Below, one piece after another: positions 10,422 to 42,088 of a DNA stretch of 64,000 nt (position 1 is the stretch's first letter; each line of letters opens with the position of its first letter). Below the pieces are notes generated by a model. That model saw only the letters and a list, made by a program, of their open reading frames with translations. It did no database searches and was not told the DNA's origin. The DNA comes from Rhodospirillales bacterium (GTDB taxonomy: Bacteria > Pseudomonadota > Alphaproteobacteria > ATCC43930 > CGMCC-115725): assembly GCA_947473305.1 (NCBI GenBank), contig CANJCB010000010.1, forward strand, positions 25,967 through 89,966, written 5' to 3'. Position numbers and translations under genes: made by a program.

Positions 10422-10425
10422 ACGG

Positions 10426-11010
10426 CTAGGAGGTGCGGCGGGGCGCCTTGCGCATCTCGCCGGCGGCTTCCATCGCTCCCTCCATGTGGTCGAGCATCAA
10501 GGCGACCATATCCCGGTAAGTCTCGATCTGCCCGGCGGTGACGCCTTCGAAGAGGCGGTCGTTGATCCGGGGCAGATTGGCTGCGATGCGGCGGATCCCG
10601 GCCCGGCCTTTAGGCGTCAGCGTGACGATCACTTCGCGCCTATCCTCGGGATTCACGGATTTCTTGAGGAGACCGCGCTGCTCCATCCCGCTGGTCTCCT
10701 TGGTCACATAGGTCCCGCTGGTCTGAAGGGCCTCCGCGATGGCCTTCACGGTCACGGCGCGGGAATCCTGCAACTCCGCCAGCACCAGGAGAATATGGAA
10801 CTGGTTGCCTGTGAGCCCGAGCGCCGATCCGATCCGATCCCGCAACTTGTCCATGCTGCGGAAGAGCGAATGAAGGTCGTAGATGAACCGGCGAAAGGTG
10901 CGATCCGATCCTCCGACCAGAAGCTCGGGGCGGGTGACAGTGACAGGCAGCACGCCAGTGCCTTTGGGTCTTTGAGAAGGTTCTGGGATGATAAGGCGGG
11001 GTCTGGGCAT
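10426..11010 (-). CDS. MarR-family transcriptional regulator
   Basis: 194 aa. wHTH region LTGNQFHILLVLAEL...VKAIAEALQTSGTYVTKE...GLLKK. Divergent from the TRAP transporter genes. Confidence 0.8.
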   Translation of the reverse strand: MPRPRLIIPEPSQRPKGTGVLPVTVTRPELLVGGSDRTFRRFIYDLHSLFRSMDKLRDRIGSALGLTGNQFHILLVLAELQDSRAVTVKAIAEALQTSGTYVTKETSGMEQRGLLKKSVNPEDRREVIVTLTPKGRAGIRRIAANLPRINDRLFEGVTAGQIETYRDMVALMLDHMEGAMEAAGEMRKAPRRTS

Positions 11011-11168
11011 GGCCCCATTCTAACCATGGCGAACCTGCGACGAAAGCGGCACAATCTTCTGGTGGCTTGACGCTCGCGATTCTTTGCGCGTCTAATTCCG
11101 AAAAGCCGAATATTGTTCGTTAATCTGTCTTCATCCGGCGAGCGCCGGCAAAAAAAGGGAGTGCGGCA

Positions 11169-12185
11169 ATGAACGGTACAGGGTGGAGTGGCGCGCTGCG
11201 CCGCATGGTTGGCGCCGCGTTATTCGCTGCCGCGGGTCTCACCTTGGCGACGGGCGATACACTTGCCGCAGACCCATCCTACCGGATCAAGCTCGCGGGG
11301 ATTTATCCCGCCGATTCCCAGGAGGGCCTGACCACCAAGCTTTTCGTCGATCTCGTCCGCAAGAAGACCAATGGCAAGATCAATATCGCGATTTTCCCGA
11401 ATGCCCAGCTCGGCGACGAACAGGCCTTGCTCCAGACCGCCTTGACCCCCGGCTGGCGCGACATGTCGACCCTGTCGATCACGATTTTCACGACGGTCGA
11501 GCCGAAGGTCGGCGCGACTTTGCTGCCGTTCCTCTTCCGGGACGACAAGCATGTGGCGGCCTTCATGACCAGTTCGGCCTTCGACATGCAGCGCGACATG
11601 CTGATCAAGGCGCGCGGATTGCGCATGCTCGGAGCCTGGGACTACATGCCCAGCAACTTCTATACGAACAAGCCGGTTGCCCAACTCTCCGATCTCAAGG
11701 GCTTGAAGCTGCGCGTGCCGCCGTCGCCGGCCTATGTGAAGCTGGTCCAGGCGCTGGGGGCCAATCCCACGCCGATCCCGCTGACCGAGCTCTACATGAG
11801 CCTGCAGACCGGCGTGGTCGATGGGACCAACGGCATCGACGACCTGATGATCTCGATGAAGCTGTCGGAAGTGGTGAAGAATGTCCTCGACACCCACCAC
11901 CAGATCAATTTCGGCAATCCGACGATTTCGGAACAATTCTACCAGTCGATGCCGCCCGCCTATCAGAAGGCGCTGACCGAAGCGGCGGTGGAGGCCGGCG
12001 CCTGGAACCATAAGCACATCAGGGACAGCATGGCCGAACTCCAGACCTCGCTGGTGAAGGCGGGCATGAAGATCGTCAAGCTCCCGGATTTTCCCAAGTG
12101 GCAGGAAGCCTCGAGCCCGCTCTACGACGATTTCGCCCAGAAGAACGGCTCCGAACTCCTCGATGCCATCAAGAAGGTGCAATAG
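11169..12185 (+). CDS. TRAP transporter substrate-binding protein (DctP family)
   Basis: 338 aa with a signal peptide. DctP-like blocks, including LKGLKLRVPPS with the conserved carboxylate-binding Arg position. Confidence 0.85.
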   Translation: MNGTGWSGALRRMVGAALFAAAGLTLATGDTLAADPSYRIKLAGIYPADSQEGLTTKLFVDLVRKKTNGKINIAIFPNAQLGDEQALLQTALTPGWRDMSTLSITIFTTVEPKVGATLLPFLFRDDKHVAAFMTSSAFDMQRDMLIKARGLRMLGAWDYMPSNFYTNKPVAQLSDLKGLKLRVPPSPAYVKLVQALGANPTPIPLTELYMSLQTGVVDGTNGIDDLMISMKLSEVVKNVLDTHHQINFGNPTISEQFYQSMPPAYQKALTEAAVEAGAWNHKHIRDSMAELQTSLVKAGMKIVKLPDFPKWQEASSPLYDDFAQKNGSELLDAIKKVQ

Positions 12186-18230: not shown

Positions 18231-19286
18231 ATGTCCTCGACAGTGGTGGGCGGCGCCATGCTGCCCCACGCCCCCCAATTCTTCACGCTTCCCGATACCG
18301 AGGATATGGCCACGGTCGAGAAGGTGCGGGTGCATGGCGCGACCATCGGGAAGGAATTGGCAGCGCTGAAGCCCGATCTCTGGATCATCTTCTCCAACGA
18401 TCACGCCGAGCAGTTCTTCCATCAGGCGGCGCCACCCTTCACGATCCACGTGGGAGCCGAGGCCAGCGGCGATTTCGCGGGCCGTAAATTCCGCTGGGAG
18501 GTCCCGAGCGAGATCGGCTTCGGCCTGGTGAAGCATCTTTATAAGCAGGGCTTCGACCCGGCTTTCTCCAGCACGGCCAAGGCGGATTATGCCATGGGCA
18601 TTCCGCTGACCCATCTGGGTCGCACCGGGCCTGTGCTGCCGATCTTCGTCAACGCCTACCTCCCGCCGCAGCCCAGCATGGAGCGTTGCTACGCCTTCGG
18701 GGAAGCTATAGCGCGCAGCGTCACGCTGATGGGGCTCAGGACGGTGATCCTGGCGAGCGGGGGGATGTCCCATTTTCCCGGAACCGACCGTTACAGCCAA
18801 CCGGCCCTTGAATGGGACCAAAAGGTCCTGGAGCGGATCAAGACCGGCAACTTGAAGTCACTGATCGGCTATGACGAAGCCGAGCTCGACGACATGGGCA
18901 ATATCGAGCTGCGCTGCTGGGCCTGCGCCGCCGGGGCGCTCGGCGAGCGCAAGCCCGACCTGCTTTCGCTGGATCCGAGCTGGCATCACAATTATGCATC
19001 CATCGGCTGGTTCGGCGGGCCACGCGAAGAGCCGGAGCCGCATTATCCGTCGATCAGGCCCGAGCTTGCCGAACTGACCGCCGCGATCCACGGGCTCGCC
19101 CATGAGGCGGATAAGTTCTCGCTCTTTCTCGCCGATCCGGGCGCTTACGCGCAGGGCTTCACCTTACCCGTCGCCCAGCGCGATGCGCTGATCCGTTTCG
19201 ACGCGCCGGCCATGGTCGCCATGGGCTGCCATCCGCTGCTGCCGTTCCTGGTGAACATGAAGCTGCAGAAGCATCGGAAGCCCTGA
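18231..19286 (+). CDS. class III extradiol ring-cleavage dioxygenase, LigB-like domain fused to a LigA-like C-terminal domain
   Basis: 351 aa. N-terminal LigB-type core (MLPHAPQF, FSNDHAEQFF, GGMSHFPG). C-terminal ~90 aa resembles the small LigA subunit (FLADPGAYAQGFTL...ALIRFD). Confidence 0.7.
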   Translation: MSSTVVGGAMLPHAPQFFTLPDTEDMATVEKVRVHGATIGKELAALKPDLWIIFSNDHAEQFFHQAAPPFTIHVGAEASGDFAGRKFRWEVPSEIGFGLVKHLYKQGFDPAFSSTAKADYAMGIPLTHLGRTGPVLPIFVNAYLPPQPSMERCYAFGEAIARSVTLMGLRTVILASGGMSHFPGTDRYSQPALEWDQKVLERIKTGNLKSLIGYDEAELDDMGNIELRCWACAAGALGERKPDLLSLDPSWHHNYASIGWFGGPREEPEPHYPSIRPELAELTAAIHGLAHEADKFSLFLADPGAYAQGFTLPVAQRDALIRFDAPAMVAMGCHPLLPFLVNMKLQKHRKP

Positions 19287-19289
19287 GAG

Positions 19290-20378
19290 TCAGGGAGCCT
19301 TGACGCCTTCGAGGCCCTTCCAGTCGAATTGGATGCCATGCCCCGGTCGCTCGGGGGCCAAGGCCATGCCTTCCTCGATACGGATCGGCTCCGCGATGAA
19401 GCGGTCGAGGCCGAAACCGTGGGATTCAAGATAAGATCGGTTGGGTGCGGCGGCCAGCAGATGAACCGTCACGTCATGGGCGCCATGGGAAGTGACCGGC
19501 AGGTTGAAGGCTTCCGCCAGATGCGCGACCTTCATGAAAACGGTGACGCCGCCGCAGTTGGTGACATCGGGCTCCGGGAAGGTGACGCCTCCCGCCGCGA
19601 TCATCTCCTTGAATTCGTTGAGGGTGTGCAGGTTCTCGCCGGTCGCTATCGGAACGCCTCCGTCGCGCAGGATCCGGACATGGCCCGCGACGTCATCAGG
19701 AATCGTGGGTTCTTCCAGCCAGAGAAGATCGTAGTCCCGGAAAGCACGGGCGGCGCGGATCGCTTCATCGACACTCCAGCGCATGTTGGCGTCGGCCATG
19801 AGCGGGAAGTCCTGGCCCAGATGCTCACGCATTGCCCGGACCCGTTCCGCATCCTCGCGCAGACGGTCGCGACCGACTTTCATCTTGATGGCGCGAAAAC
19901 CCTTGGCGAGATTGTCGTCGGTCTGACGCAGGAGTTTGTCCGTCGGCACCTGAAGATCGACTCCGCCCGCATAGATCGGCACCCGCGCGTCGTAACCTCC
20001 CAGCAGGCGCCAGAGCGGCATGCCGAGACGTTTCGCCTTGAGATCCCAGAGCGCGATATCCACAGCCGAAACCGCGAGGCTGGACTGCCCGCCGCGTCCA
20101 CCGAAATGGAGCGCCCACCACATCTTCCGCCAGAGAGCCTCGATGAGGTCGGCGTCCTGGCTGATCAGATGTTGCTTCAGATCCCGGTCGATCAAGGAAT
20201 GGACCGCGCCGCCGCCGGCCCCAACGGTATAGGTGTAGCCAACGCCCTCGGCCCCATCCTTCGTCCGCAGCCGCACTGTAATGAGCTCGAAATGGCTGAT
20301 GTCGCCATGAGTGCTGTCGGAGAGCACCTGGGGCAGAGGAATGCGATAGTGATCGGTTTCCAGGGATGCGATGGTCAT
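19290..20378 (-). CDS. mandelate racemase / muconate lactonizing enzyme (enolase superfamily) protein
   Basis: ORF 19290..20396, start probably ATG 20378 (MTIASLETDHYRIPL). IKMKVG, ADAN and WLEEP metal-ligand blocks. Confidence 0.8.
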   Translation of the reverse strand: MTIASLETDHYRIPLPQVLSDSTHGDISHFELITVRLRTKDGAEGVGYTYTVGAGGGAVHSLIDRDLKQHLISQDADLIEALWRKMWWALHFGGRGGQSSLAVSAVDIALWDLKAKRLGMPLWRLLGGYDARVPIYAGGVDLQVPTDKLLRQTDDNLAKGFRAIKMKVGRDRLREDAERVRAMREHLGQDFPLMADANMRWSVDEAIRAARAFRDYDLLWLEEPTIPDDVAGHVRILRDGGVPIATGENLHTLNEFKEMIAAGGVTFPEPDVTNCGGVTVFMKVAHLAEAFNLPVTSHGAHDVTVHLLAAAPNRSYLESHGFGLDRFIAEPIRIEEGMALAPERPGHGIQFDWKGLEGVKAP

Positions 20379-20476
20379 GGCAATGCTCCGCTTCACCTTT
20401 CAGATCGTAGCCTGGACGGCGAAGCGGGATATAGTCTAGACAAACTGTGACCGGGCGAACCGGCAAGGGGAGAAAA

Positions 20477-21295
20477 ATGGCCGAAGACGTATGTTTGTAT
20501 GAAGTGGACGACAAGCTCAGCATCATCACCATGAACCGTCCGGACAAGCTCAACGCCTTGAGCGAGGACCTGAAGGAGGCGCTCGAAGCGGCTTTTGCCC
20601 GCGCCGACGAGGATCCCGCCACCAGCGTCGTTGTGCTGCGCTCCAACGGGCGGAGCTTCTGCGCCGGCTATGACCTGAGTGGCACCGACACCTCATGGGC
20701 GCAGCATCGCCAGAATCCCTTGAAGTGGCACGAGCGGCTGACCCATGAACTCGGCATGGAGATGACGCCCTGGTATATGCGCAAGCCGGTGATCTGCTCG
20801 GTCCAAGGCCATGCTCTGGGCGGCGGCTGCGAGCTGACCATGTTCTGCGACATGACCATCGCGGGGGACAACGCCCTTTTCGGCGAGCCCGAGGGCCGGT
20901 TTTCCGGCACGGGGCCGGGTTTCATCATGCCTTGGCTCATAGGCTACAAGAAAGCGCGCGAACTCCTCTATCTCGGCGACATGATCGGCGCCGAGGAAGC
21001 CCTGGCGCTCGGCATGATCAACAAGATCGTGCCCGTCGCGGAGCTTCGCGAAGCCACGATCAAATACGCCAAGCGCCTGTCGCTCATCGCGCCCGAGGCG
21101 CTTGTGATGACCAAGCTCGCGATCAATCGGGGCGCCGATGCTTCGGGTTTCCGCAACGCCATGCAGGCCGGTATCGACGTGGTTTCGCCGCTCTATGCCG
21201 CGCAGACCGAGGTGGGCGTCGAGTTCCGGGAACGGGTCAAGACCGACGGGCTTCCCGCCGCCTTGAAGTGGCGGCGCGCGCAGTTCGACCAATAG
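20477..21295 (+). CDS. enoyl-CoA hydratase/isomerase (crotonase) family protein
   Basis: ORF 20447..21295, start moved to ATG 20477 (MAEDVCLYEVDDKLSIITMNRPDKLNAL) with AAGGGGAGA upstream. FCAGYDL and VQGHALGGGCEL blocks. Confidence 0.85.
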   Translation: MAEDVCLYEVDDKLSIITMNRPDKLNALSEDLKEALEAAFARADEDPATSVVVLRSNGRSFCAGYDLSGTDTSWAQHRQNPLKWHERLTHELGMEMTPWYMRKPVICSVQGHALGGGCELTMFCDMTIAGDNALFGEPEGRFSGTGPGFIMPWLIGYKKARELLYLGDMIGAEEALALGMINKIVPVAELREATIKYAKRLSLIAPEALVMTKLAINRGADASGFRNAMQAGIDVVSPLYAAQTEVGVEFRERVKTDGLPAALKWRRAQFDQ

Positions 21296-27712: not shown

Positions 27713-29302
27713 TCATTTCATGAACCAGGCTTCGCCATATCGTCCGTCGCCCCGCGCGTCGCCCCACATGTTCTGGAGCTTCTTGGAGGCGGCATCGATC
27801 TGCGAGTAGTCGCGGATGATGAAGGCCGGAAGGTCGTCGGCGAGGATGGTTTGGGCCTCCCGATAGAACCTGGCGCGTTCATCCTGGGTGGTCGCCTTCT
27901 CGCCCAGGTCGAAAAGCTCGTCCACCTTCGGGTTCGAGTAGTTGGTGGGATTGCCATAGAGCTGGCCGATGCTGGAGGTCACATAGGCCCGCGAGATGCC
28001 CAGGGCGGGATCGGAGAAGGTCGTATAACCCACCATGGTAATGTCGAAATCGCGGTCGACGAAGACCCGTTTGGTCAGCGCGGCGCTTTCCAAGGCCTCG
28101 ATATTCACGTCCACGCCGACGTTCGACCACATGCTCTTGAGCGCGACGGCGGCCTGGGTCAATTCGATATATTCCGTCTGGAAAACGACCATCTTCACGG
28201 TGAAGCGCTTGCCATCCGAGCCCCGCTTCAAGCCGGCCGCGTCAAGCAAGGCGTTCGCCTTGGCGACGTCGAAGGGATAGGTCTTGCGATAGTCGACATC
28301 GGTGTTGAGGGGCCAGGTCACCCAGCTGTTGAAGGGCCGGAGCCCCTGTTCGCCGTGATTGAAAAAAACGTTCTTGATAAGGAAGTCGCGATCCGTCGCC
28401 ATCAGAAGCGCATGCCGGACGCGCTTGTCGTCGTAGGGCTTGTTCTTGATGTTATACATGAGGAAGTTCGATGCGGGCGGATACTCGCCCGGCTCGATCT
28501 TCAACTTCGGATCGGATTTGACCAGATCGATACTGGAGGCGGGGAAGGTCGAGACGAGATCGACTTCACCGGCCTGAAGCGCCTGCATGCGGGCGGCAGG
28601 CTGCGTGATCACCTTGGCGATGATCTCGTCGAGATAAGGCCGATCTTTCTCGTAATAGGTCGGATTGCGAACCAGCTTCAGATAATTGCCCCGTTTCCAT
28701 TCGGCGAGCTTGAACGGCCCGGTACCTACAGGGTCGGTAAGTGTGGTGGCGTTACGTACTGGGTCCGTGCCGCGATAGAGATGGGAGGGCAGGATGGCAC
28801 CGCCCTGTTCGCAGGCCATGGAAAGCATGAAGGGGCCGAATGGCTGCTTCAGCTTGATGATGACCTTGTCCTTGGCGGGTGTTTCGATGCTCTCCATGGC
28901 GCGGCCGCCGGCGGCAAAGACGGAGGAGTATTTGGCGCTGACTTCCTGCAGGGTGTATTTCACGTCTTCGGAGGTGAAGGGCTTGCCGTCCTGCCAATTC
29001 GCCTCGATGAGGTCGAAGCTATAGGTGAGACCGTCGGGCGAAATGCTCCAGGTCTTAGCAAGCCGGGGTTTCGCCTTGTAGCCGCCGCCGATGTCGACCA
29101 TTCCCTGGTAGATCATGCAGCTCATGAGCTTGTCCGGCACCCCATTGGTGACATTGGGATTGATCGTCGGCGGGTCCTGGCTCAGGACCATCACCAGAGT
29201 GCCGCCCCGCTGCGGGGTCAGCGTCTGAGCATGCGCGCTGCTCATTGATGCGGCAAATGCAAGTGAGGCGAGAACGCTTAGGCCAATGGCCACCTTCGTC
29301 AT
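27713..29302 (-). CDS. ABC-transporter periplasmic solute-binding protein, family 5, paralog 3
   Basis: 529 aa with a signal peptide (ASMSSAHAQT). Same conserved blocks as 4680 and 6348 (PQRGGT, MSCMIYQGM, ANWQDGKPFTSEDVKY, GTGPFKL). Confidence 0.9.
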   Translation of the reverse strand: MTKVAIGLSVLASLAFAASMSSAHAQTLTPQRGGTLVMVLSQDPPTINPNVTNGVPDKLMSCMIYQGMVDIGGGYKAKPRLAKTWSISPDGLTYSFDLIEANWQDGKPFTSEDVKYTLQEVSAKYSSVFAAGGRAMESIETPAKDKVIIKLKQPFGPFMLSMACEQGGAILPSHLYRGTDPVRNATTLTDPVGTGPFKLAEWKRGNYLKLVRNPTYYEKDRPYLDEIIAKVITQPAARMQALQAGEVDLVSTFPASSIDLVKSDPKLKIEPGEYPPASNFLMYNIKNKPYDDKRVRHALLMATDRDFLIKNVFFNHGEQGLRPFNSWVTWPLNTDVDYRKTYPFDVAKANALLDAAGLKRGSDGKRFTVKMVVFQTEYIELTQAAVALKSMWSNVGVDVNIEALESAALTKRVFVDRDFDITMVGYTTFSDPALGISRAYVTSSIGQLYGNPTNYSNPKVDELFDLGEKATTQDERARFYREAQTILADDLPAFIIRDYSQIDAASKKLQNMWGDARGDGRYGEAWFMK

Positions 29303-30452: not shown

Positions 30453-31568
30453 TCAGACATCGAGCGTGGCGACCTCGCGCATGCCGGGGACATAGACGCC
30501 GCCCCGGCGCCCGGCCGTGTAGAAATCGTGGATCCAGTCCGACAGAGGCCGCGCCTCCGGCGTTACCAGCCAGAGCCGCAGCAGATGCCGCTTGCGCTCC
30601 GGCTCCGGAAAATCCTCCCAGGCGGTGCGGGTGTGGAGGGTGACGTGGTTGTTGATGAACTGCACGTCGCCCTTTTCGAGCTGCATCGGCAGATTGATCC
30701 CCGGCTCGTTCGCGACAGCGTTCATGAAGTCCATGGCCTCGCGCTGCTTGTCGGTGAGGCGCGGAGCTTCCGGGATGCGCTCGGCATTGCGGACGAAGCC
30801 CGGGAGGGAATGGGTGGTCAGGCGGCCTTCGACCCAATGGAAGACGGGCATCGGATAGTAAGGTTTGGTCCCCGCCGGGAGTTCCTCCATCCGGCTCGTC
30901 CACAAGGGCTGATAGAGGACTTCCAGGAGATCCGGCCGCCGCTTCATGATTTCGTTATGGATAGTGACCGAACTCGCGATCATGCTGAGCCCGCCCGACA
31001 TGGCGGGATGCAGGCAGAAAAGCCCGACGATATCGCAGAGATCGACGTGGAAATTGAGCTGGCTTCGGCTGTTGTAGACGTCGAGCGCCCGGCGTTCCCC
31101 TTGGTTCTCGGAACCTTGCTTCTTCAAGCTTTCGCCTTTGTCCAGCCCGACGACATGGCCCAAAAGATGCCCGCGGCCGTTCTGCGAGACGGGATAGCCG
31201 AAATAAAGCCCGATCCCCCAATAGAGGACGGCCAGATCGTCCCTCGAATAGTCGTCGACCGGCAGGCCGCGCAGGAGGATGAAGCCCCGCCCGTCCGTCA
31301 CCTCATGGCGTAGGGCGGTGAGCCTACCGCTCAGGGTGGGAAGCGGAAAATTGGCCCGGTCCACCTCGATAAGCGGGATGTTGGATTTACGGACATGGGA
31401 AACCGCCGCGCCGAGTTCGGCGAGTTCGGCCGCGTCGAAACGGTATTGCCAGACACTCGGATCCGGGAAATCGCCAGGGACCCAGGCAGCGGTATCGACG
31501 ACCGGTCCAGCGGGCATCGCGATATCCGGAGTGGTCGAATAGGGGGCTCTCTGAATCGCCTTCATCAC
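30453..31568 (-). CDS. TauD/TfdA-family Fe(II)/2-oxoglutarate dioxygenase (paralog 2)
   Basis: 371 aa. HVD facial-triad motif (NFHVDLCD), distal His (VTLHTRT), C-terminal RKRHLLRLWL. Confidence 0.8.
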   Translation of the reverse strand: MMKAIQRAPYSTTPDIAMPAGPVVDTAAWVPGDFPDPSVWQYRFDAAELAELGAAVSHVRKSNIPLIEVDRANFPLPTLSGRLTALRHEVTDGRGFILLRGLPVDDYSRDDLAVLYWGIGLYFGYPVSQNGRGHLLGHVVGLDKGESLKKQGSENQGERRALDVYNSRSQLNFHVDLCDIVGLFCLHPAMSGGLSMIASSVTIHNEIMKRRPDLLEVLYQPLWTSRMEELPAGTKPYYPMPVFHWVEGRLTTHSLPGFVRNAERIPEAPRLTDKQREAMDFMNAVANEPGINLPMQLEKGDVQFINNHVTLHTRTAWEDFPEPERKRHLLRLWLVTPEARPLSDWIHDFYTAGRRGGVYVPGMREVATLDV

Positions 31569-33793: not shown

Positions 33794-35242
33794 ATGAAGA
33801 CCGTCGGATTGTCCGCTGCGACCTCGTCGATCGTCCCCTTTATCATCGGGTCGGCGAGCTTCATGCAGCAACTCGATTCGACCGTGATCGCGACCGCTCT
33901 CCCATCGATTGCGGAATCGATGAACGACGATCCGATCCGCCTCAACCTCGCGATCACATCTTACCTGCTGGCGGTCGCAATCTTCATTCCGATCAGCGGC
34001 TGGATGGCGGATAAATTCGGGGCGCGGCTCATATTCCACAGCGCCATCCTGATTTTCACGCTGAGTTCCGTGCTTTGCGGACTTTCCGAATCGCTGCCCA
34101 TGTTGGTGGCGGCCCGGATGCTTCAAGGGGTCGGTGGGGCGATGATGGTGCCGGTGGGACGCCTCGTCATCCTGAAGACCGTGCCGAAGGCGGACCTTGT
34201 CCGGGCGATGACCTATCTGACGGTTCCAGCCGTGATCGGCCCCATCCTGGGCCCGCCGGTCGGGGGTTTCATCGTCACCTACAGTTCCTGGCGCTGGATC
34301 TTCTTCATCAATGTGCCGATCGGAATCCTCGGGATCGTCCTGGTCAGCCTGCTGATGCGGGAAGTGAAGGAAGACGATGTGCCGCCCCTTGATTTCTGGG
34401 GCTTTGCGCTCGCGGGCATCGGGCTTGCGAGCGTTGTCTTCGGGCTGGAGACCCTCGGCAAGGGCGTCATTCCCAACGAGGCGATCGCCGCGATGATCCT
34501 CGGCGGTGCGGGGCTTATGGCGCTCTATTTCCGGCATGTCCGCGATATCGACCGTCCCATCGTCGATTTGCAGGTCTTTAGGTTTCCGACCTTTTATGCG
34601 TCCGTGGTGGGCGGAATTCTCAGCCGCATCGGGATGGGGGCGCTGCCCTTTCTTCTCGCGATGCTGCTGCAATTGGGTTTCGGGCTTGACGCGTTCACGG
34701 CGGGTCTTATCACCTTTGCGAGCGCGGCGGGCTCGCTGACCATGAAATTCACCGTGCGGCCGATCATCAGAAAGTTCGGTTTCAGGCGGGTCCTGATCTG
34801 GAACGTGGTCATCGTCTCAGGCTTTTTCGCAAGCTATGCGGCCTTCAGGGACACTACCCCGCATGGGCTTATCATCCTGGGGCTTCTGTTGGGCGGGTTC
34901 TTCCGCTCCCTCCAATTCACGAGCCTCAATACCTTGATGTATGCCGACGTGCCTCAACCGCTCATGAGCCGCGCCAGCACCGTCGCGAGCATGATCCAGC
35001 AGCTGACGCAAAGCATCGGCATCGGGCTCGCCGGGCTGCTGCTTCACTTCAGCATCTATCTGCGTGGCGGAACTTCGATAGAGCAGGGGGACGTTTCGCC
35101 GGTCTTTCTGGTCATCGCCGCCATCTCCCTGCTATCGCTCTTCTTTTTCTTACCGCTGTCGCCGAATGCGGGCGCCGAGGTCAGTGGCAGGCGGATACAA
35201 CCCCTCCAGCCGAAAGAGCAAAACGGGACGGGCGGCGCATGA
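33794..35242 (+). CDS. MFS transporter, DHA2 (EmrB/QacA-like, 14-TMS type)
   Basis: 482 aa, polytopic. MFS motif A-like GWMADKFGARL and motif C-like region. Confidence 0.85.
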   Translation: MKTVGLSAATSSIVPFIIGSASFMQQLDSTVIATALPSIAESMNDDPIRLNLAITSYLLAVAIFIPISGWMADKFGARLIFHSAILIFTLSSVLCGLSESLPMLVAARMLQGVGGAMMVPVGRLVILKTVPKADLVRAMTYLTVPAVIGPILGPPVGGFIVTYSSWRWIFFINVPIGILGIVLVSLLMREVKEDDVPPLDFWGFALAGIGLASVVFGLETLGKGVIPNEAIAAMILGGAGLMALYFRHVRDIDRPIVDLQVFRFPTFYASVVGGILSRIGMGALPFLLAMLLQLGFGLDAFTAGLITFASAAGSLTMKFTVRPIIRKFGFRRVLIWNVVIVSGFFASYAAFRDTTPHGLIILGLLLGGFFRSLQFTSLNTLMYADVPQPLMSRASTVASMIQQLTQSIGIGLAGLLLHFSIYLRGGTSIEQGDVSPVFLVIAAISLLSLFFFLPLSPNAGAEVSGRRIQPLQPKEQNGTGGA

Positions 35243-36807
35243 CGGAAGCGGCCTCCCAACCGGCGGTCTCCTTCACCCATCGGGAGATCATGGTGATCCT
35301 CGCCGGGCTGATGCTCGGCATGTTCCTGGCGGCGCTCGACCAGACGATCCTGGGCGCGGCCTTGCCCCGGATCGGATCGGACCTGGGCGGTGCGCAGGAA
35401 ATTTCCTGGGTCATTTCCGCCTATTTGCTATCCTCGACGGCGGTAACGCCGATCTACGGCAAGCTCAGCGATCTCTACGGCCGGCGGCTGATGCTGCAAT
35501 CGGCGATCCTGATTTTCATCACGGCCTCGCTGCTTTGCGGCCTTGCGACCTCAATGCAGATGCTCATCGGCTTCCGGGCGCTCCAAGGCCTCGGCGGCGG
35601 CGGTTTGATGGTGCTCGCCCAGGCGACGCTGGCCGATGTGGTCTCGCCCCGCAATCGCGGAAAATACCAGGGCTATTTCGCGGCCATGTGGCTGATCGCC
35701 AGCATGATCGGACCAACCCTCGGCGGCTTCTTCGCCGATTATCTGACCTGGCGATGGGCGTTCTGGATCAACATACCCCTGGGCCTGATCGCCCTGTTCG
35801 TGGCGCAAAGCAGCCTCAGGGCTCTGGTGGTGAAGCGGATCCGCCATCGGATCGACTATCTGGGCGGATTGCTGATCGTCGGCGCGGTCACTTGCCTTCT
35901 GCTGGTTACCACCCTGGGCGGGGCGGATATGCCCTGGAGTTCGCCCCTGATCCTGGGACTCATCGGGGCGGCCCTCGTGCTGCTTGCGCTCGCGGTCATC
36001 CAGGAACACCGCGCCGCCGAACCTATCCTTCCGCCGAGGCTCTTTCGGAACAGGGCTTTCGTGATCGCCAATTCGACCTGCGTCTTCTACTCGATGGCGA
36101 TCGTCGGTTCGGTTGTCTTCATGCCGAGCTTTCTCCAGATGGCTTATCAGTTGGACGCGAGCCAGTCCGGCATGGTCATGATCCCCTTTCTGATCGCCAC
36201 GCCTCTCGCGGTCATCGTCGGTGGGCGCATCGTCGCCTATACGGGGCGCTACAAGATCCTGCCGATCGTAGGGCTCTCGGTCATGATGGTGGGTATGGGC
36301 GCCATGTGTTTCGTGAGTGCGGCGACACCGCTTGTCCTGTCGATGGCGATCATGACGGTCTTCGGCTTGGGAGTGGGTTTCCTCGGGCCGATCCTGATCG
36401 TCAGCATGCAGAATTCCATCGATTGGCGAGACATGGGATCGGGGACCGCGGCCTTCAATTTCTTCCGCAACATGGGCGGCTCCTTCGGCGTGACGCTTTT
36501 CGGTGCGGTGCTGCTGGCGCGGCTTGAAGGCCTCGTTTCGCGATTGCCGGTGCCCCCGTTGCCGGGCGATGCGGAGCCGGGTGTCACCCTATTGCATCTG
36601 GGCGGCAAGGCGTTGTCCTCGATGCCCGATGCCGCCCGGGATGGCGTCGCCCGGGCGATAGAGGGAGCCTTCAACGACATGTTCCTCTGCGGCCTGATTG
36701 TCTCTGCCATTGGCCTTCTGATCGTCCTTTTCATGAAGGAAGAGCCGCTGAAGACCGTGACGGCCGCTGCGGAACGGGCCGAGGCGCAGCAGCATTCGGT
36801 CGATTGA
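35239..36807 (+). CDS. MFS transporter, DHA2 (EmrB/QacA-like)
   Basis: 522 aa, polytopic. GKLSDLYGRR motif A. Start overlaps the upstream MFS stop by 4 nt. Confidence 0.85.
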   Translation: MTEAASQPAVSFTHREIMVILAGLMLGMFLAALDQTILGAALPRIGSDLGGAQEISWVISAYLLSSTAVTPIYGKLSDLYGRRLMLQSAILIFITASLLCGLATSMQMLIGFRALQGLGGGGLMVLAQATLADVVSPRNRGKYQGYFAAMWLIASMIGPTLGGFFADYLTWRWAFWINIPLGLIALFVAQSSLRALVVKRIRHRIDYLGGLLIVGAVTCLLLVTTLGGADMPWSSPLILGLIGAALVLLALAVIQEHRAAEPILPPRLFRNRAFVIANSTCVFYSMAIVGSVVFMPSFLQMAYQLDASQSGMVMIPFLIATPLAVIVGGRIVAYTGRYKILPIVGLSVMMVGMGAMCFVSAATPLVLSMAIMTVFGLGVGFLGPILIVSMQNSIDWRDMGSGTAAFNFFRNMGGSFGVTLFGAVLLARLEGLVSRLPVPPLPGDAEPGVTLLHLGGKALSSMPDAARDGVARAIEGAFNDMFLCGLIVSAIGLLIVLFMKEEPLKTVTAAAERAEAQQHSVD

Positions 36808-36870: not shown

Positions 36871-37236
36871 ATGCCAGGAAATCCGGGACCGGGATATGCG
36901 AAGAAACCCGACCATAAAGTCGTTCTGGAACGGGAGCCTCGGCGCGTCCAGGTCCGTCGCGGCGGCGAGGTCCTGGTCGACAGCGACGCGGCGCTCGTCA
37001 TGCAGGAAACCGGGCATGGACCCACCTATTATCTTCCGCGCCGCCATGCCCGGATGGAAAAGTTCCGGCGCACCGACCATTCGAGCTATTGCCCCTTCAA
37101 GGGGACGGCCTCCTATTTCTCGCTGGAGGACGCGGAAAACGCGGTCTGGAGCTATGAGACGCCTTACGATGAGATGGCCGGGATCCAGGAATATCTCGCC
37201 TTCTATCCCGACAAGGTCGAGATCACCCTGCTCTGA
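36871..37236 (+). CDS. DUF427 domain protein
   Basis: ORF 36820..37236, start moved to ATG 36871 (GAGGAGAGG SD upstream). YYLPRRH...CPFKGTASYFSL...AVWSYETPY is the DUF427 signature. Confidence 0.7.
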   Translation: MPGNPGPGYAKKPDHKVVLEREPRRVQVRRGGEVLVDSDAALVMQETGHGPTYYLPRRHARMEKFRRTDHSSYCPFKGTASYFSLEDAENAVWSYETPYDEMAGIQEYLAFYPDKVEITLL

Positions 37237-37328
37237 GAGAGACGCTGTCGGTTTGAGTCCGGGATAAGCGAAGGCGCCACCCTGAAGCCCTGGGCGAGGC
37301 TGGACACAGGCTTCGCCGCTGTGTCAAC

Positions 37329-37357
37329 CTGCCGTCATCTTTCAGAAAAATGACGGC
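37329..37357. promoter_or_regulatory. inverted repeat TGCCGTCAT-N11-ATGACGGCA upstream of the MAL-like gene
   Basis: Perfect 9-bp arms read from the sequence. Ends ~12 nt before ATG 37370 and abuts the SD. Confidence 0.3.
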
Positions 37358-37369
37358 AAGGGGCTCGGC

Positions 37370-38608
37370 ATGAAGGTTCAGCAGGTGATCTGTGCGGCCG
37401 GGCGATCCGGCTACATGCACCGCGACCTCATGGCGATCAAAGCGGGCGCAAAACCCAACGGCTATCTCTTCGAGGGAAAGCCCATAACACCGGGTTTTCG
37501 CAAGATCGCCGAGGCCGCGACCATCGTTTCCATCATGCTCGTTCTGGAGGACGGGCAGATCGCTTTCGGCGATTGCGCCGATGTGATCTTGGCGGGTGCT
37601 GCCGGCCGGGATCCTGCGTTTCATGCGGAAGACCACATCGATTACATCCAGGGCGAGGTGGCGGAAGCGCTACAGGGCCGGGATGTCTCCGCTTTCCGTG
37701 CCCATGCGGAGGAAATGGAAGGCTTCCAGCACAAGGGGAAACCGCTTCACACCGCGATCCGCTACGGGGTGAGCCAGGCGCTCGTCCATGCCTCGGCTCT
37801 GGCGGGCAGGCTCACCATGGCCGAGGTGATCGCGCGGGACTACGGCAGCACGATCTCCAAGACCTCGATCCCGATCCTGGCCTCCTGCCAGACCGACGAT
37901 CCGATGCAGCTCGACCGGGTGATTTTGAAACGCCCGGAACTGCTGCCCCATGCCTCTTTCACGGTGGTGAAGGACCATGTGGGGCTACGGGGCGAGAAGC
38001 TGCACGCCTATGCCTTGAAGGTGGCGAACCGGATCAAGGAGATCGGCGACAAGGACTATCACCCGCGCATCCATCTCGATATCTATGGCACACTCGGCGA
38101 GCTTTTCGAGATGAACCTCGATCGCATCGCGGATTACATCGGCACGTTAAGCGAGGCGGTCAGCCCTTTCTTCTTCCTTCTGGAATCGCCGATCATCGCG
38201 AAGACGCAGGCAGCTCAGGTCGAGAGCTACAGTAAGCTCGGCGCGATGCTTCGCCAGAAGGGCATTCCGGTAAAGCTGGTCCTCGACGAATGGTGCAATA
38301 CGGTCGAGGATGTGAAGCTCTTCACCGATGCCAAGTCGGGCGATTTCCTCCAGATCAAGACGCCGGATCTGGGCGGCATCGGCAATACGATCGAAGCGGT
38401 CCTCTATTGCAAGGCCAACGGCATGGGCGCCAGCCTCGGCGGCACCGCGAACGAGACCGACCAATCCGCGCGGGTGACGGCCCATATCGGCCTCGCCTGC
38501 CAGCCGGATTTCGTGATGTCGAAACCGGGGCTTGGGGCCGACGAGGCGCTCATGATCCAGACCAACGAGATGGCCCGCACGCTGGCGATCCTGCAGGCAA
38601 GGCGATAA
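37370..38608 (+). CDS. mal: methylaspartate ammonia-lyase (3-methylaspartase) family protein
   Basis: 412 aa, collinear with clostridial MAL as I recall it. Shared blocks: LVLEDGQIAFGDC, GRDP, LHTAIRYG, LLPHA, HLDIYGT, DEWCNTVEDVK, QIKTPDLGG, YCKANGMGA, ANET. Confidence 0.85.
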   Translation: MKVQQVICAAGRSGYMHRDLMAIKAGAKPNGYLFEGKPITPGFRKIAEAATIVSIMLVLEDGQIAFGDCADVILAGAAGRDPAFHAEDHIDYIQGEVAEALQGRDVSAFRAHAEEMEGFQHKGKPLHTAIRYGVSQALVHASALAGRLTMAEVIARDYGSTISKTSIPILASCQTDDPMQLDRVILKRPELLPHASFTVVKDHVGLRGEKLHAYALKVANRIKEIGDKDYHPRIHLDIYGTLGELFEMNLDRIADYIGTLSEAVSPFFFLLESPIIAKTQAAQVESYSKLGAMLRQKGIPVKLVLDEWCNTVEDVKLFTDAKSGDFLQIKTPDLGGIGNTIEAVLYCKANGMGASLGGTANETDQSARVTAHIGLACQPDFVMSKPGLGADEALMIQTNEMARTLAILQARR

Positions 38609-38630
38609 CCGACGGAAAGAGAGAACCTTA

Positions 38631-40235
38631 ATGATGCAATCGTCCGAAGTGAGACGGCAGGGTGCGGCGTGGCTCGGCGCGGTTCTGGCCATGGCGCTGC
38701 CGGTTGCGGCTTTTGCTGCCGATGAGACGCCCCGCATGGGCGGGACGGCCATCGCGGTGCTCGCCTCGGATCCCGCGGTGCTCAATCCCGATGTCAGCGT
38801 CGGCGTGCCCGATATCTTCGCGGGCTGCATCCTGCATGACGCCCTGATTCGCTTCGGCGAAGGCTTCAAGATCGTCCCCTCGCTTGCGAAATCCTGGGAG
38901 ATCGCGCCGGATGCGCTGACCTATACCTTCCATTTGGGAGACGCGAGCTTCTCGGACGGGAAGCCGATGACCTCCGAGGACGTCAAATTCACCCTGACGG
39001 AGATCAGCTCCAAATACGGCGCCAAGTTCAGCACGCCGGGCAAGGCGATCAAGGACATCGAGACGCCCGACCCCAAGACAGTGGTCATCCACCTGTCGCG
39101 CCCCTTCGGTCCCTTTCTCTTTTCGATGGCCTGCGAGCAGAACGCCGCGATCATGCCGGCCCATATCTATCGGGGTACGGAGATTCTGAAGAATCCCGCC
39201 TCGCTGACCACGCCGGTCGGCGTCGGACCGTTCCTGCTCAAGGACTGGCAGCGCGGCAACAAGATGACCTTCACCCGGAACCCGAACTACTGGAACAAGG
39301 GCAAGCCCTATCTCGACGAGATCATCATCCGGATGATGCCGGAATCGTCCTCGCGCATCCTGGCGCTCCAGGCGGGCGAGATCGACTACATCAACGAATA
39401 TTATTTCCCGCTCAGCTCCTACCAGATGTTCAAGAACGACCCCCGCTTCCAGGTGGAGGACGTGAGTTATCCGGGCGACGATCTCATCATCTTCAACACG
39501 CGGAAAGCCCCGCTCGACAAGCGCGAGGTGCGCCAGGCGCTGCTGACCGCTTTGGACCGGGCCTATATCCACAAGAACGTCTTCTACGACGTGGGCGGGA
39601 CCGCGGTCAGCGCCATCGATACACGGCTTGAGTGGGCCTATAACCCCGCCGTCAACTACGACAAGATGTATGCCTATGACCCCAAGCGCGCGGCGAAGAT
39701 GCTGGATGACGCCGGCGTGAAGCCCGGGGCGGACGGCGTGCGCTTCACCCTGCGGGTGACCTATGACACGGCGCGGCCGGAATATACCGCTTGGATCCAG
39801 ACCATTCAGCAGAACTGGGGCGCCATCGGGGTCAAGGTCATCTCGGAAGGGGCCGAGCGGCCGGTAGTCCTCAAAAAGGTCTATTCGGACTACGACTTCG
39901 ACGCGACGTTGCAGAACTACACGACCGCGGGCGATCCGGCGCTCGGCGTCTCGCGGATCTATACGACCGAATCGATCCTGAAGGGCGCGAACTTCAACAA
40001 TGCCTCGGGCTATTCCAATCCTGAAGTGGACGAACTCTTCAATCTCGGCCGCGACGCGCCGAACCAGGCGGAGCGCGCCAAGCATTACTTCAAGATGCAG
40101 GAGATCATCGCCCGCGATCTGCCGACCATAACGGCCCATCAGCAGGCCGAGATCGACGCCACGACGATCAAGCTGCGCGACGTCTGGAAGGCGGCGAATT
40201 ATCTCTGGTGGGACCAGATCTGGTTGAAGGAATAG
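38631..40235 (+). CDS. ABC-transporter periplasmic solute-binding protein, family 5, paralog 4 (most divergent)
   Basis: 534 aa with a signal peptide (ALPVAAFAADE). Family-5 blocks (SFSDGKPMTSEDVKFTL, GVGPFLLKDW). Starts 22 nt after the MAL-like stop. Confidence 0.9.
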   Translation: MMQSSEVRRQGAAWLGAVLAMALPVAAFAADETPRMGGTAIAVLASDPAVLNPDVSVGVPDIFAGCILHDALIRFGEGFKIVPSLAKSWEIAPDALTYTFHLGDASFSDGKPMTSEDVKFTLTEISSKYGAKFSTPGKAIKDIETPDPKTVVIHLSRPFGPFLFSMACEQNAAIMPAHIYRGTEILKNPASLTTPVGVGPFLLKDWQRGNKMTFTRNPNYWNKGKPYLDEIIIRMMPESSSRILALQAGEIDYINEYYFPLSSYQMFKNDPRFQVEDVSYPGDDLIIFNTRKAPLDKREVRQALLTALDRAYIHKNVFYDVGGTAVSAIDTRLEWAYNPAVNYDKMYAYDPKRAAKMLDDAGVKPGADGVRFTLRVTYDTARPEYTAWIQTIQQNWGAIGVKVISEGAERPVVLKKVYSDYDFDATLQNYTTAGDPALGVSRIYTTESILKGANFNNASGYSNPEVDELFNLGRDAPNQAERAKHYFKMQEIIARDLPTITAHQQAEIDATTIKLRDVWKAANYLWWDQIWLKE

Positions 40236-40318
40236 GTGGGCGGATAATTGGCGTCCTTTCCGCGCTTCGGAGCGGAGAGGGAGATTCTTGAACATTTGCG
40301 GACAGGGGAACCGGGGGA

Positions 40319-41479
40319 ATGAGGCTCGAAAAAGCGGTCAATATCGAAGACCTTCACAAGATGTCGAAGCGGTATCTGCCGCGCGCGGTCTTCGATTTCG
40401 TGGAGGGGGGCTGCGAAGACGAGATCGGGATCGCCCATAATGAGACCGCCTTTGCCGCGTATCGGCTGATCCCGCGCTATCTGGTGGATATCCGGGAGCG
40501 TTCCCACGAGACCTCGCTTTTCGGGCGGACCTATTCCCTGCCGTTCGGCATAGCGCCGACCGGTGGGGTGGGGCTCGCTCGGCGGGGCATGGAATGCATG
40601 CAGGCGGCCGAGGCCGCCGCGGCGAATATCCCCTTCATTCTCTCCGGCGCCAGCAATAGCTCCATCGAAGAGACCTTCAAGCATGCGCCCCAGCATATGT
40701 GGTACCAGCTCTACGCCTCCAAGGAACTCAAGGACTCGGAGGATATGATCCGCCGCGCTAAGGATGTCGGCGTCGGCACCCTGGTGATCACGGTGGATAC
40801 GCCGCTGCGCTCACGGCGCGAGCGAAATATTCGCAACGGCTTCACCTCGCCCCGGTCGATGGGCCTCGGCACCATGCTGGAGGCGGCTACTCATCCCGGC
40901 TGGCTCCTGGAATATCTCCGCTGCGGTGGCGAGCCCTATCACGAGACCTGGCGCGCCTATGTGAAGGCGGGAGCCAGCGCCTATGAGGTCTCGACCTATG
41001 TGTCGCAGCATCTTCTCCCGCCCCAATCCTGGGACGAGATCCACCGGCTGCGCCAGCAATGGCCGGGCAAATTCGTAATCAAGGGCATCATGAGTCCAGC
41101 TGATGCCCTGAAGGCGATCGAGATCGGCACGGACGGGATCGTCATCTCCAACCACGGCGGGCGTCAACTCGACCGGGCCCCGTCTTCCATCGAAATGCTG
41201 CCGATCATCAAGGCCGCAGTCGGCGACCGGCTGACACTCATGCTCGACAGCGGCGTGCGGCGTGGCTCGGATATCGTTATCGCCCTCTGCCTGGGCGCAG
41301 AATATGTGTTCACGGGCCGGGCAACGCTCTATGGGGGTATCGCCGGCGGCCGGCCGGGGGTGAAGAAGGCCATCGATATCCTGCGAGCGGAACTCGATGC
41401 CGTGATGGGCCAGATCGGCGCGCCGACCATCGCCAGCCTGGGACCGGACTTCGTTCGATCGCCGTCTTCAGGCCAATAG
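40319..41479 (+). CDS. FMN-dependent alpha-hydroxy-acid dehydrogenase/oxidase (L-lactate / mandelate / glycolate oxidase family)
   Basis: 386 aa. AVFDFVEGGCEDE, WYQLY, VITVDTP, ISNHGGRQLD and DSGVRRGSD motifs. Confidence 0.85.
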   Translation: MRLEKAVNIEDLHKMSKRYLPRAVFDFVEGGCEDEIGIAHNETAFAAYRLIPRYLVDIRERSHETSLFGRTYSLPFGIAPTGGVGLARRGMECMQAAEAAAANIPFILSGASNSSIEETFKHAPQHMWYQLYASKELKDSEDMIRRAKDVGVGTLVITVDTPLRSRRERNIRNGFTSPRSMGLGTMLEAATHPGWLLEYLRCGGEPYHETWRAYVKAGASAYEVSTYVSQHLLPPQSWDEIHRLRQQWPGKFVIKGIMSPADALKAIEIGTDGIVISNHGGRQLDRAPSSIEMLPIIKAAVGDRLTLMLDSGVRRGSDIVIALCLGAEYVFTGRATLYGGIAGGRPGVKKAIDILRAELDAVMGQIGAPTIASLGPDFVRSPSSGQ

Positions 41480-41485
41480 GCATCC

Positions 41486-42088
41486 TTGTCGGGAAACTGG
41501 CGCGACTATTACGAGGCTACGGCCGGACGACCTCCGCGCCGCACCACTCTCGCGGCTTTGGCGGGTTTTTCCCAAGGCGGCGGGGGGCGTTCAGCGGTTG
41601 ATCTCGGTTGTGGCGATGGACGCGACGCCGTGGAGATGCTGCGGCAGGGCTGGACGGTTCTCGCCATCGATGCGGAGCCTGCCGCCATCGAGCGCTTGAG
41701 CGGCCGTTCCGATCTGCCTGGCACAGGCAAGCTCGATCTGTCCTGTGCGCGTTTCGAAGAGATCGACTGGCCTCCCGTCGACCTGGTGAACGCAAGCTTC
41801 TCGCTTCCGCTTTGTCCCCCTTCGGCATTCCCGCGTCTCTGGCGGCGACTCTGTCGGTCATTGAAGCCGGGCGGTCGTTTTTCCGGACAGCTTTATGGCT
41901 TTCGAGACGAATGGGCTGGGTCGTCAGGAACAACTCATCACCATAGGACCGAGGTGGAAAGACTGCTCTCAGGCTTCGATCTCGAATTGTTCGAGGAGGA
42001 GGAGAGCGATGCTTTGACGCCCAGAGGAAAGACGAAGCATTGGCATATCTTCCATATCGTCGGAAGAAAACGCTCTAATATATTCTAA
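41486..42088 (+). CDS. class I SAM-dependent methyltransferase
   Basis: 200 aa, TTG start per the ORF track. Motif I VDLGCGDGRD. The last codons lie in an AT-rich tract. Confidence 0.7.
   Translation: MSGNWRDYYEATAGRPPRRTTLAALAGFSQGGGGRSAVDLGCGDGRDAVEMLRQGWTVLAIDAEPAAIERLSGRSDLPGTGKLDLSCARFEEIDWPPVDLVNASFSLPLCPPSAFPRLWRRLCRSLKPGGRFSGQLYGFRDEWAGSSGTTHHHRTEVERLLSGFDLELFEEEESDALTPRGKTKHWHIFHIVGRKRSNIF

Follow-up and report, generated by a model that had tools for sequence, protein, structure and literature searches.

A methylaspartate ammonia-lyase homologue and its locus

The DNA analysed here is a 64,000-nucleotide (64-kb) stretch of contig CANJCB010000010.1 from a Rhodospirillales bacterium, referred to below as the window, and our subject is one of its genes, which encodes a full-length homologue of methylaspartate ammonia-lyase (MAL), referred to as the lyase. 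We propose that the lyase is probably a cytoplasmic, Mg2+-dependent beta-elimination enzyme of the MAL family that belongs to a distinct, uncharacterised clade and acts on a substrate other than 3-methylaspartate. The gene is the second of five on one strand, with a palindrome directly upstream of it:

36871-37236, + strand: DUF427 gene (Pfam PF04248), with a longer open reading frame (ORF) from 36820
37330-37358, no strand: palindrome TGCCGTCAT-N11-ATGACGGCA, a perfect 9-bp inverted repeat
37370-38608, + strand: MAL-family lyase gene, 412 aa (Pfam MAAL_N and MAAL_C)
38631-40235, + strand: family-5 solute-binding protein (SBP5) gene (Pfam SBP_bac_5, 275 bits)
40319-41479, + strand: flavin mononucleotide (FMN)-dependent alpha-hydroxy-acid oxidase/dehydrogenase family gene (Pfam FMN_dh, 409 bits)
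41486-42088, + strand: class I S-adenosylmethionine (SAM)-dependent methyltransferase gene (Pfam Methyltransf_25, _11, and _12)

The gaps between the five genes are 133, 22, 83, and 6 nt in order; the SBP5 gene starts 22 nt past the stop of the lyase gene, and the methyltransferase gene starts 6 nt past the FMN_dh gene. An initial annotation, made from the sequence alone, had called these genes in this order with the 22-nt gap and had reported the inverted repeat upstream of the lyase, and all of these features are present in the window.

The lyase matches both domains of its family, the N-terminal capping domain and the C-terminal TIM barrel, with residues 1-159 aligned to profile positions 1-159 of 159 in MAAL_N (200 bits) and residues 162-409 aligned to positions 2-248 of 249 in MAAL_C (322 bits). 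It shares 45% identity over the full length with the crystallised MAL of Clostridium tetanomorphum (CtMAL, 1KCZ). This alignment contains only one 1-residue gap, after position 226, so the residue mapping is unambiguous, and residue numbers below are those of CtMAL unless marked as window-protein numbers. In a Foldseek search, the AlphaFold model of the lyase (pLDDT 81.5, pTM 0.84) gave TM scores of 0.90-0.91 to 1KCZ, 1KKO, 3ZVH, and 3ZVI, and the next folds (MLE, dipeptide epimerase) scored ~0.6. The lyase keeps the Mg2+ ligands Asp238, Glu273, and Asp307, the bases Lys331 and His194, Gln329, which stabilises the enolate, and the alpha-carboxylate ligand Thr360. The motifs pointed out in the initial annotation (LLPHA, HLDIYGT, LESP, DEWCNT, QIKTPDLGG, CADVILAGAAGRD, and GGTANET) are each found in the translation, and the Pfam matches, the 1KCZ alignment, and the fold agree with its description of a full-length MAL-family gene with metal and base motifs. 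As the architecture, the metal ligands, the bases, Gln329, and Thr360 are the same as in MAL, the same enolate-forming beta-elimination chemistry is expected.

We note that the AlphaFold confidence falls below 50 in two loops of the model, window-protein residues 37-49 and 194-199. The latter loop includes the catalytic residue His194 as well as the clade-specific L196S and I197F changes, and it may be a mobile active-site lid, as far as the model can be read in this way.

A remodelled pocket that marks a clade

In MAL, Gln172 hydrogen-bonds the amine of the substrate directly, and Gln73 does so only through a water molecule; Q172A considerably changes Km, and Q172N nearly abolishes activity (PMC7241714). 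The substrate's methyl group is held in a pocket formed by Phe170, Tyr356, and Leu384 (PMC7241714). According to the 1KCZ alignment, Gln172 is replaced by Ser and Gln73 by Ile in the lyase, and the methyl pocket has Phe170 replaced by Leu, Tyr356 by Ser (window-protein Ser355), and Leu384 by Met (window-protein Met383). Further changes are Ala71 to Asp, Tyr74 to Leu, Ser75 to Ala, Gly174 to Gln, Cys361 to Ala, and Met389 to Leu; positions 71 and 174 thereby gain polar residues. Taken residue by residue, the alignment shows a binding site remodelled for the leaving amine and the C3 substituent alike.

The initial annotation had proposed an altered amine pocket, based on Ile at the Gln73 position and Ala at the Cys361 position. 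The Ile is indeed there, and the amine pocket is altered more deeply than by this one residue, with both Gln73 and Gln172 replaced in a clade-invariant manner. The Cys361 to Ala change is also real, but it is not evidence about the amine pocket. Cys361 binds the C1-carboxylate through its backbone NH, and the C361A mutation has little kinetic effect (PMC7241714), so this substitution is non-diagnostic; of the C1-carboxylate ligands, the lyase keeps Thr360 and has Ala at 361. It is Gln172 to Ser and the methyl-pocket changes that carry the weight, because these residues contact the amine directly or form the methyl pocket (PMC7241714). The engineering precedent cited in the initial annotation, in which Q73A opens MAL to substituted amines, holds up in the literature; the Q73A and L384A variants and the roles of Lys331 and His194 are reviewed in PMC7586795.

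To place these residues in the family, we compared 80 reference-genome loci, comprising 50 variant loci (L001-L050, 52-72% identity to the lyase) and 30 canonical loci, the latter spanning Clostridia, Ruegeria, Myxococcota, and Dormibacteraeota. All 30 canonical sequences have A71, Q73, Y74, S75, F170, Q172, G174, Y356, C361, and L384. The variant clade, carried by Alpha- and Betaproteobacteria, has the signature D71, I73, L74, A/T75, L170, S172, H174, a small residue at 356, L357, A361, and S385. At positions 71, 73, 170, 172, 174, and 361, the split between L001-L049 and the 30 canonical sequences is without exception. The remaining sequence, L050 (52% identity), has D71, I73, L170, and A361 as in the clade, but Met172, Pro174, and Tyr356. 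In an unbiased comparison, 22 positions are fixed within each group yet different between the groups, and 86 are fixed and identical. The discriminating positions lie mostly in segments 71-78, 170-177, 196-203, and 274-277, which lie next to residues of the pocket or the catalytic set, in addition to pocket positions 361 and 389. The six metal and catalytic residues (D238, E273, D307, K331, H194, and Q329) are kept in the canonical sequences and across the variant clade, except for Asn238 in L008.

The lyase of the window belongs to this clade. In a neighbour-joining tree (distance-based, no bootstrap), the variant sequences are monophyletic and apart from canonical MAL, and the lyase falls inside a core group, L001-L046. 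It carries the full signature except for Gln174, where the clade has His, and it also has Met at the conserved L384 of the clade. The same Gln174 and Met384 are found in P0121, a 57%-identity relative. Among the 119 closest database clusters (66-72% identity; metagenome-assembled genomes (MAGs) of Hyphomicrobiales, Stellaceae, Rhodospirillaceae, Burkholderiales, and others), D71, I73, L74, A75, L170, S172, L357, and A361 are present in every one, H174 and S385 in all but one, and the residue at 356 is Cys, Ser, or Gly. The nearest non-identical sequence is 72% identical to the lyase. Across 222 near-invariant clade columns, the lyase is changed at 17, mostly conservatively (D/E, I/V, L/V, F/Y), which is the highest count among the 120 sequences compared and is compatible with a functional protein.

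Wherever close homologues are named in any source, they are called methylaspartate ammonia-lyase. The lyase scores 453 bits against the equivalog model TIGR01502, whose cut-off is 286, and this model thus fails to separate the variant and canonical clades. SFLD has a MAL subgroup with a single family (as tabulated in PMC5368075). In our literature search, which excluded most subscription journals, no divergent MAL clade has been characterised and no link between MAL and MmgE/PrpD proteins has been described. The clean split in residues, together with that in gene neighbourhoods described below, speaks for a probable misannotation of a large proteobacterial clade as methylaspartate ammonia-lyase.

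Several observations on the wider family stand apart from this comparison. Among 186 family representatives at 50% identity (E <= 1e-30), there is at least one further non-canonical pocket type (S73, S172, H329, L356). This second type has Ser or Ala at 73, Ser172, His329, and Leu356, often with Ala or Gln in place of His194, and it keeps the metal ligands and Lys331; its carriers are P0166, P0169, P0171-P0173, P0182, P0187, P0189, P0198, P0200, P0205, P0210, and P0231. In L008 (MAL at 10001-11233), the homologue with Asn at metal ligand 238, extra ORFs lie between the lyase and SBP genes, and L015 has two lyase gene copies in opposite orientation. Five loci (L009, L011, L019, L020, and L029) carry improbable MAG labels such as uncultured Enterobacteriaceae, Bordetella parapertussis, and Streptomycetaceae; these are soil or lake bins, and their taxonomy is untrustworthy.

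Conserved partners and a probably reduced operon

Canonical MAL genes have well-defined neighbours. Glutamate mutase adjoins 20-23 of the 30 canonical loci, and mesaconase adjoins 16 of the 30. With GlmS, GlmL, GlmE, and the two mesaconase subunits of the C. tetanomorphum locus as tblastn probes, we found no glutamate mutase and no mesaconase at the 50 variant loci or within the 64-kb window, methylaspartate-cycle enzymes not having been probed directly. The initial annotation had stated that the usual partners are absent from the window, and had suggested that the lyase is not a glutamate-fermentation MAL. Both statements agree with this search, as the partners occur at most canonical loci and at 0 of the 50 related ones.

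The variant loci have neighbours of their own. We clustered the neighbourhoods of related loci with a GC3 filter and corrected the PrpD calls by tblastn. Among the 36 informative variant loci (at least 4.5 kb of downstream sequence), a solute-binding protein (SBP) gene adjoins the lyase gene in 29, a PrpD-like gene lies within 5 kb on the same strand in 30, and both are present in 26. SBP5 orthologues 63-77% identical to that of the window lie directly downstream of the lyase in 27-28 of the 50 related loci, and a TctC/Bug-type carboxylate receptor replaces SBP5 in 9-13 betaproteobacterial loci. DppBCDF-like permeases and ATPases of the ATP-binding cassette (ABC) type often follow the PrpD-like gene. 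The lyase-SBP5-PrpD order is also found at the P0121 locus. The adjacent SBP, which the initial annotation had put forward as the importer of the substrate, is therefore a genuine conserved partner. Its window copy has an N-terminal signal-peptide-like sequence, and its best solved relative is AgaA (6HLX, 162 bits). The 555-codon ORF at 38628-40295 on the minus strand, antisense to the SBP5 gene, is a high-GC artefact and not a gene.

The PrpD-like partner is a protein of ~475 aa of the MmgE/PrpD family, far below the cut-offs for true PrpD and with the conserved motifs of the family kept. Its best match in the PDB is iminodisuccinate (IDS) epimerase (2HP0; E 7e-37, 130 bits, ~30% identity), followed by cis-aconitate decarboxylase (111 bits). 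The substrates of characterised MmgE/PrpD enzymes are all C4-1,4-dicarboxylates, and the activities are those of a dehydratase, decarboxylase, epimerase, or isomerase (PMC12290011). A lead to an mmgE gene of a succinamopine Ti plasmid was dropped, as the annotation proved unrelated. Other neighbours are less frequent. An acyl-CoA synthetase (ADP-forming) and an enoyl-CoA hydratase are encoded in 5 variant loci, which fits an unsaturated dicarboxylate product; other loci have a thiamine diphosphate (ThDP) enzyme and an aldehyde dehydrogenase, and a GNAT acetyltransferase gene lies divergently upstream of the lyase in 6.

Of the five genes listed above, only the lyase and SBP5 genes belong to this conserved arrangement. 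The initial annotation had described a cluster of DUF427, lyase, SBP, FMN oxidase, and methyltransferase genes and had proposed its conservation in relatives as a check. The SBP association passes, but DUF427, the oxidase, and the methyltransferase are found together with the lyase in 0 of the 50 relatives (52-72% identity) and not at the P0121 locus, and the membership of the DUF427 gene in the lyase unit is doubtful. The FMN_dh gene occupies the position that the PrpD-like gene holds in relatives, and its product falls below the curated cut-offs of all five matched NCBIfam models, including L-lactate dehydrogenase, LldD, and MftD. As the lyase nests in a clade arranged lyase-SBP-PrpD, its present neighbours are best explained by secondary juxtaposition. 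We infer that the window locus is a secondarily reduced, two-gene (lyase and SBP5) version of a lyase-SBP-PrpD-ABC operon. In this lineage, the PrpD-like and ABC genes would have been lost, the lyase and SBP genes kept, and unrelated neighbours acquired. The identical lyase protein is present on 16 contigs from several samples, and matching MAG contigs include GCA_947480555.1.

The window has four paralogous family-5 SBP genes:

4680-6284, + strand: family-5 SBP gene
6348-7958, + strand: family-5 SBP gene
27713-29302, - strand: family-5 SBP gene
38631-40235, + strand: the SBP5 gene adjacent to the lyase

Only the lyase-adjacent SBP5 is orthologous to the SBP of the clade (63-77%), and the other three are paralogues with 41-48% identity. 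Each SBP5 lies beside a different catabolic enzyme, namely a TauD-like/MetE-like pair, a 2-oxoglutarate (2OG) oxygenase, or the MAL-like lyase. This suggests that several receptors feed one transporter encoded elsewhere. Genes at ~24-27.7 kb, beside the SBP5 gene at 27713-29302, were considered as the missing ABC components; they actually encode a ThDP enzyme, a luciferase-like monooxygenase, and a 2OG oxygenase.

The end of the palindrome lies 11 nt before the ATG of the lyase gene, just 5' of an AAGGGG ribosome-binding-like site. About 0.03 matches are expected by chance with up to 3 mismatches permitted, and the palindrome was not found upstream of the lyase gene in the 49 related loci in which it was sought or elsewhere in the window. 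It is a candidate operator specific to the lineage of the window. A promoter and terminator scan of 36.5-42.5 kb gave a result no better than shuffles.

Further genes of the window deserve a brief record. Two major facilitator superfamily (MFS) transporter genes (33794-35242 and 35239-36807, both + strand, overlapping by 4 nt) lie directly upstream of the DUF427 gene; at 11 related loci, too, MFS genes are placed divergently upstream of the lyase, and their cluster differs from that of the MFS genes in the window. A TauD-family dioxygenase gene (30453-31568, - strand) has 40-42% identical homologues in five betaproteobacterial loci (L006, L024, L025, L031, and L034), where they lie a few kb upstream of the lyase operon and, in three of the five, beside a TctC receptor gene; this recurrence could be a weak functional link or a coincidence. 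A second enolase-superfamily gene, of MR/MLE type (19290-20396, - strand), is unrelated to the MAL-like gene and is flanked by genes for a LigB-like extradiol dioxygenase (18231-19286) and an enoyl-CoA hydratase (20447-21295).

Proposed function and comparison with known systems

The most likely role of the lyase is in the catabolism of an imported substituted aspartate- or succinate-type acid. The substrate would be captured in the periplasm by SBP5 and imported by an ABC core encoded elsewhere. In the cytoplasm, the lyase would remove a proton next to a carboxylate of the substituted succinate or aspartate through a Mg2+-stabilised enolate, and the substituent on the neighbouring carbon would be expelled. 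This substituent would most likely be a bulkier or N-substituted amine, and/or the molecule would carry a larger C3 group, and the products would be an unsaturated dicarboxylate and an amine or ammonia. In most relatives, the PrpD-like protein probably converts one stereoisomer of the same dicarboxylate into another, or else acts on the product. An N-substituted aspartate is a plausible substrate, as it would agree with the absence of both glutamines that bind the amine. Since the methyl pocket is also remodelled (F170L and the small residue at 356), a larger group at C3 or a leaving group other than an amine would fit just as well.

Several points weigh against this proposal. The lyase passes the NCBI equivalog model for true MAL. 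ChMAL is a true and functional MAL without a glutamate mutase neighbour (PMC3310078), and genomic context alone therefore cannot exclude MAL activity. In the 64-kb window, there is no homologue of the PrpD-like gene (tblastn best E 1.1) and no ABC permease or ATPase gene. The lyase is off-clade at two pocket positions (H174Q and L384M), so the substrate of the clade is possibly not shared by it. The substrate of the clade and even its leaving group are predictions, as is the placement of Asp71 and residue 174 at the substrate.

In a more specific form, which we offer only tentatively, the D71/I73/S172 clade would be the first amine lyase of the enolase superfamily, a natural enzyme of MAL type working with an MmgE/PrpD-type epimerase and a dedicated importer on stereoisomeric N-substituted aspartates. 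Candidate substrates would be natural aminopolycarboxylate chelators, opine-like compounds, and non-enzymatic fumarate-amine adducts.

It is rather unlikely that the clade cleaves no C-N bond and applies the same enolate chemistry to a non-amine leaving group, as a methylmalate/citramalate-type (de)hydratase or an S-succinyl C-S lyase, or that it acts as an epimerase. Hydrophobic or small residues stand in place of both amine-binding glutamines, dehydratases and racemases are numerous in the enolase superfamily, and among the non-MAL folds those of muconate cycloisomerases and dipeptide epimerases come nearest. The partners, TctC receptors and the MmgE/PrpD protein, are carboxylate-oriented, and the divergent GNAT neighbour in 6 loci recalls the acetylation step in the breakdown of S-(2-succino)cysteine. 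However, the MAL family offers no precedent for such a reaction, the new Asp71 and His174 could just as well serve to bind a substituent that is cationic, and the nearest solved relatives of SBP5 bind nitrogenous ligands (peptides, opines, and nickel chelates). The 2SL, argininosuccinate, and adenylosuccinate lyases are members of lyase class I and not of the MAL family (PMC9706529). The function of S-(2-succino)cysteine lyase was set aside on the same ground, the known enzyme being of lyase class I, and the compound is retained solely as a speculative substrate class.

That the lyase is an ordinary 3-methylaspartate ammonia-lyase (EC 4.3.1.2), serving aerobic assimilation of methylaspartate or mesaconate without glutamate mutase, is in our judgement unlikely. 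Its TIGR01502 score, the uniform naming of its close homologues, its intact catalytic and metal residues, and the precedent of ChMAL (PMC3310078) all speak for such a role. However, the direct amine ligand Gln172, at which substitutions by Ala or Asn have the effects described above (PMC7241714), is Ser in L001-L049 and in the window, and Gln73, Phe170, and Tyr356 are replaced as well. These residues are retained in 30 of 30 canonical sequences, ChMAL itself keeps 9 of 10 active-site residues (PMC3310078), and the conserved neighbourhoods of the two clades are completely different.

A functional cluster of all five genes (DUF427, lyase, SBP, FMN oxidase, and methyltransferase) dedicated to an N-substituted aspartate appears quite improbable. 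The genes share one strand with the gaps given above, the arrangement is repeated in six contig matches listed for the identical protein, as far as the contig reaches, and the Q73A variant provides a precedent for N-alkyl amines (PMC7586795). Contigs that carry this same protein represent one species-level lineage and thus give no independent support, and three of the five genes are missing beside the lyase in every related locus and at the P0121 locus. As the window gene is nested in a clade with an ancestral lyase-SBP-PrpD arrangement, secondary juxtaposition is the simplest explanation.

That the window copy is a decaying remnant of the lyase-SBP-PrpD-ABC operon with no physiological role left is very hard to credit: the PrpD-like and ABC genes are lost and the lyase has the most changes at clade-invariant columns among 120 sequences, but these changes are mostly conservative, the 412-codon frame is intact with all catalytic and metal residues kept, the SBP gene is intact too at 64-77% identity to its orthologues, and the identical protein recurs on 16 contigs in several samples.

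What is new here is probably a functionally distinct clade of the MAL family, of moderate interest for enzymology and biocatalysis. If the reading as a natural amine lyase is true, the MAL subgroup, which is treated as isofunctional, hides several activities, and thousands of database entries are misnamed. Engineered MALs make N- and C3-substituted aspartates, and a natural clade that has both pockets remodelled is an obvious place to look for new C-N lyases. As a recurrent unit, the lyase-SBP-PrpD-ABC operon points to a route, so far unrecognised, by which soil and freshwater bacteria would break down an environmental dicarboxylic amino acid, and it gives a functional lead for an uncharacterised branch of MmgE/PrpD proteins. 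For the window itself the meaning is more modest, as it holds a reduced two-gene remnant of the operon.

Compared with canonical MAL, the lyase has the same two-domain architecture, a fold with a TM score of 0.90, 42-46% full-length identity, and the same metal ligands and bases. It differs at both amine ligands, in the methyl pocket, and at positions 71, 74, 75, 174, 361, and 389; these changes are fixed clade-wide, apart from residues 174 and 384 of the window protein and residue 356, which is small but variable. The clade is never found beside glutamate mutase or mesaconase, and its lyase is paired with an SBP and a PrpD-like protein instead.

The engineered CtMAL variants Q73A and L384A (3ZVH and 3ZVI) have opened amine and alkyl pockets, and the larger alkyl pocket admits a wider range of C3 substituents (PMC7586795); the natural clade is altered in both of these pockets. 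Unlike these variants, the clade has lost Gln172 as well and has acquired Asp71 and His174. The Leu384 that is removed in L384A is kept in the clade (Met in the window), which has a smaller residue at 356 instead.

The EDDS lyase belongs to the lyase class I (aspartase/fumarase) superfamily. Other members of lyase class I, the argininosuccinate, adenylosuccinate, and 2SL lyases, release fumarate from N- or S-substituted succinyl compounds (PMC9706529), the type of reaction proposed here. Their fold is unrelated, and they have no metal-dependent enolate mechanism. In the literature searched, no natural MAL-type enzyme that releases fumarate from N- or S-succinyl compounds is described.

A parallel to the gene pair of the relatives is found in the degradation of iminodisuccinate by Agrobacterium tumefaciens BY6, which uses an MmgE/PrpD-family epimerase (2HP0) and a stereoselective C-N lyase, just as the relatives have an MmgE/PrpD gene beside a predicted substituted-aspartate lyase. 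The C-N lyase of BY6, on whose sequence family our literature search gave nothing relevant, probably belongs to the aspartase/fumarase superfamily rather than to the MAL family. The PrpD-like protein of the relatives is only ~30% identical to the IDS epimerase, and the window has no PrpD-like gene. By analogy with the BY6 system, the pairing of an epimerase with a stereospecific lyase would open all stereoisomers of a substituted succinate to use.

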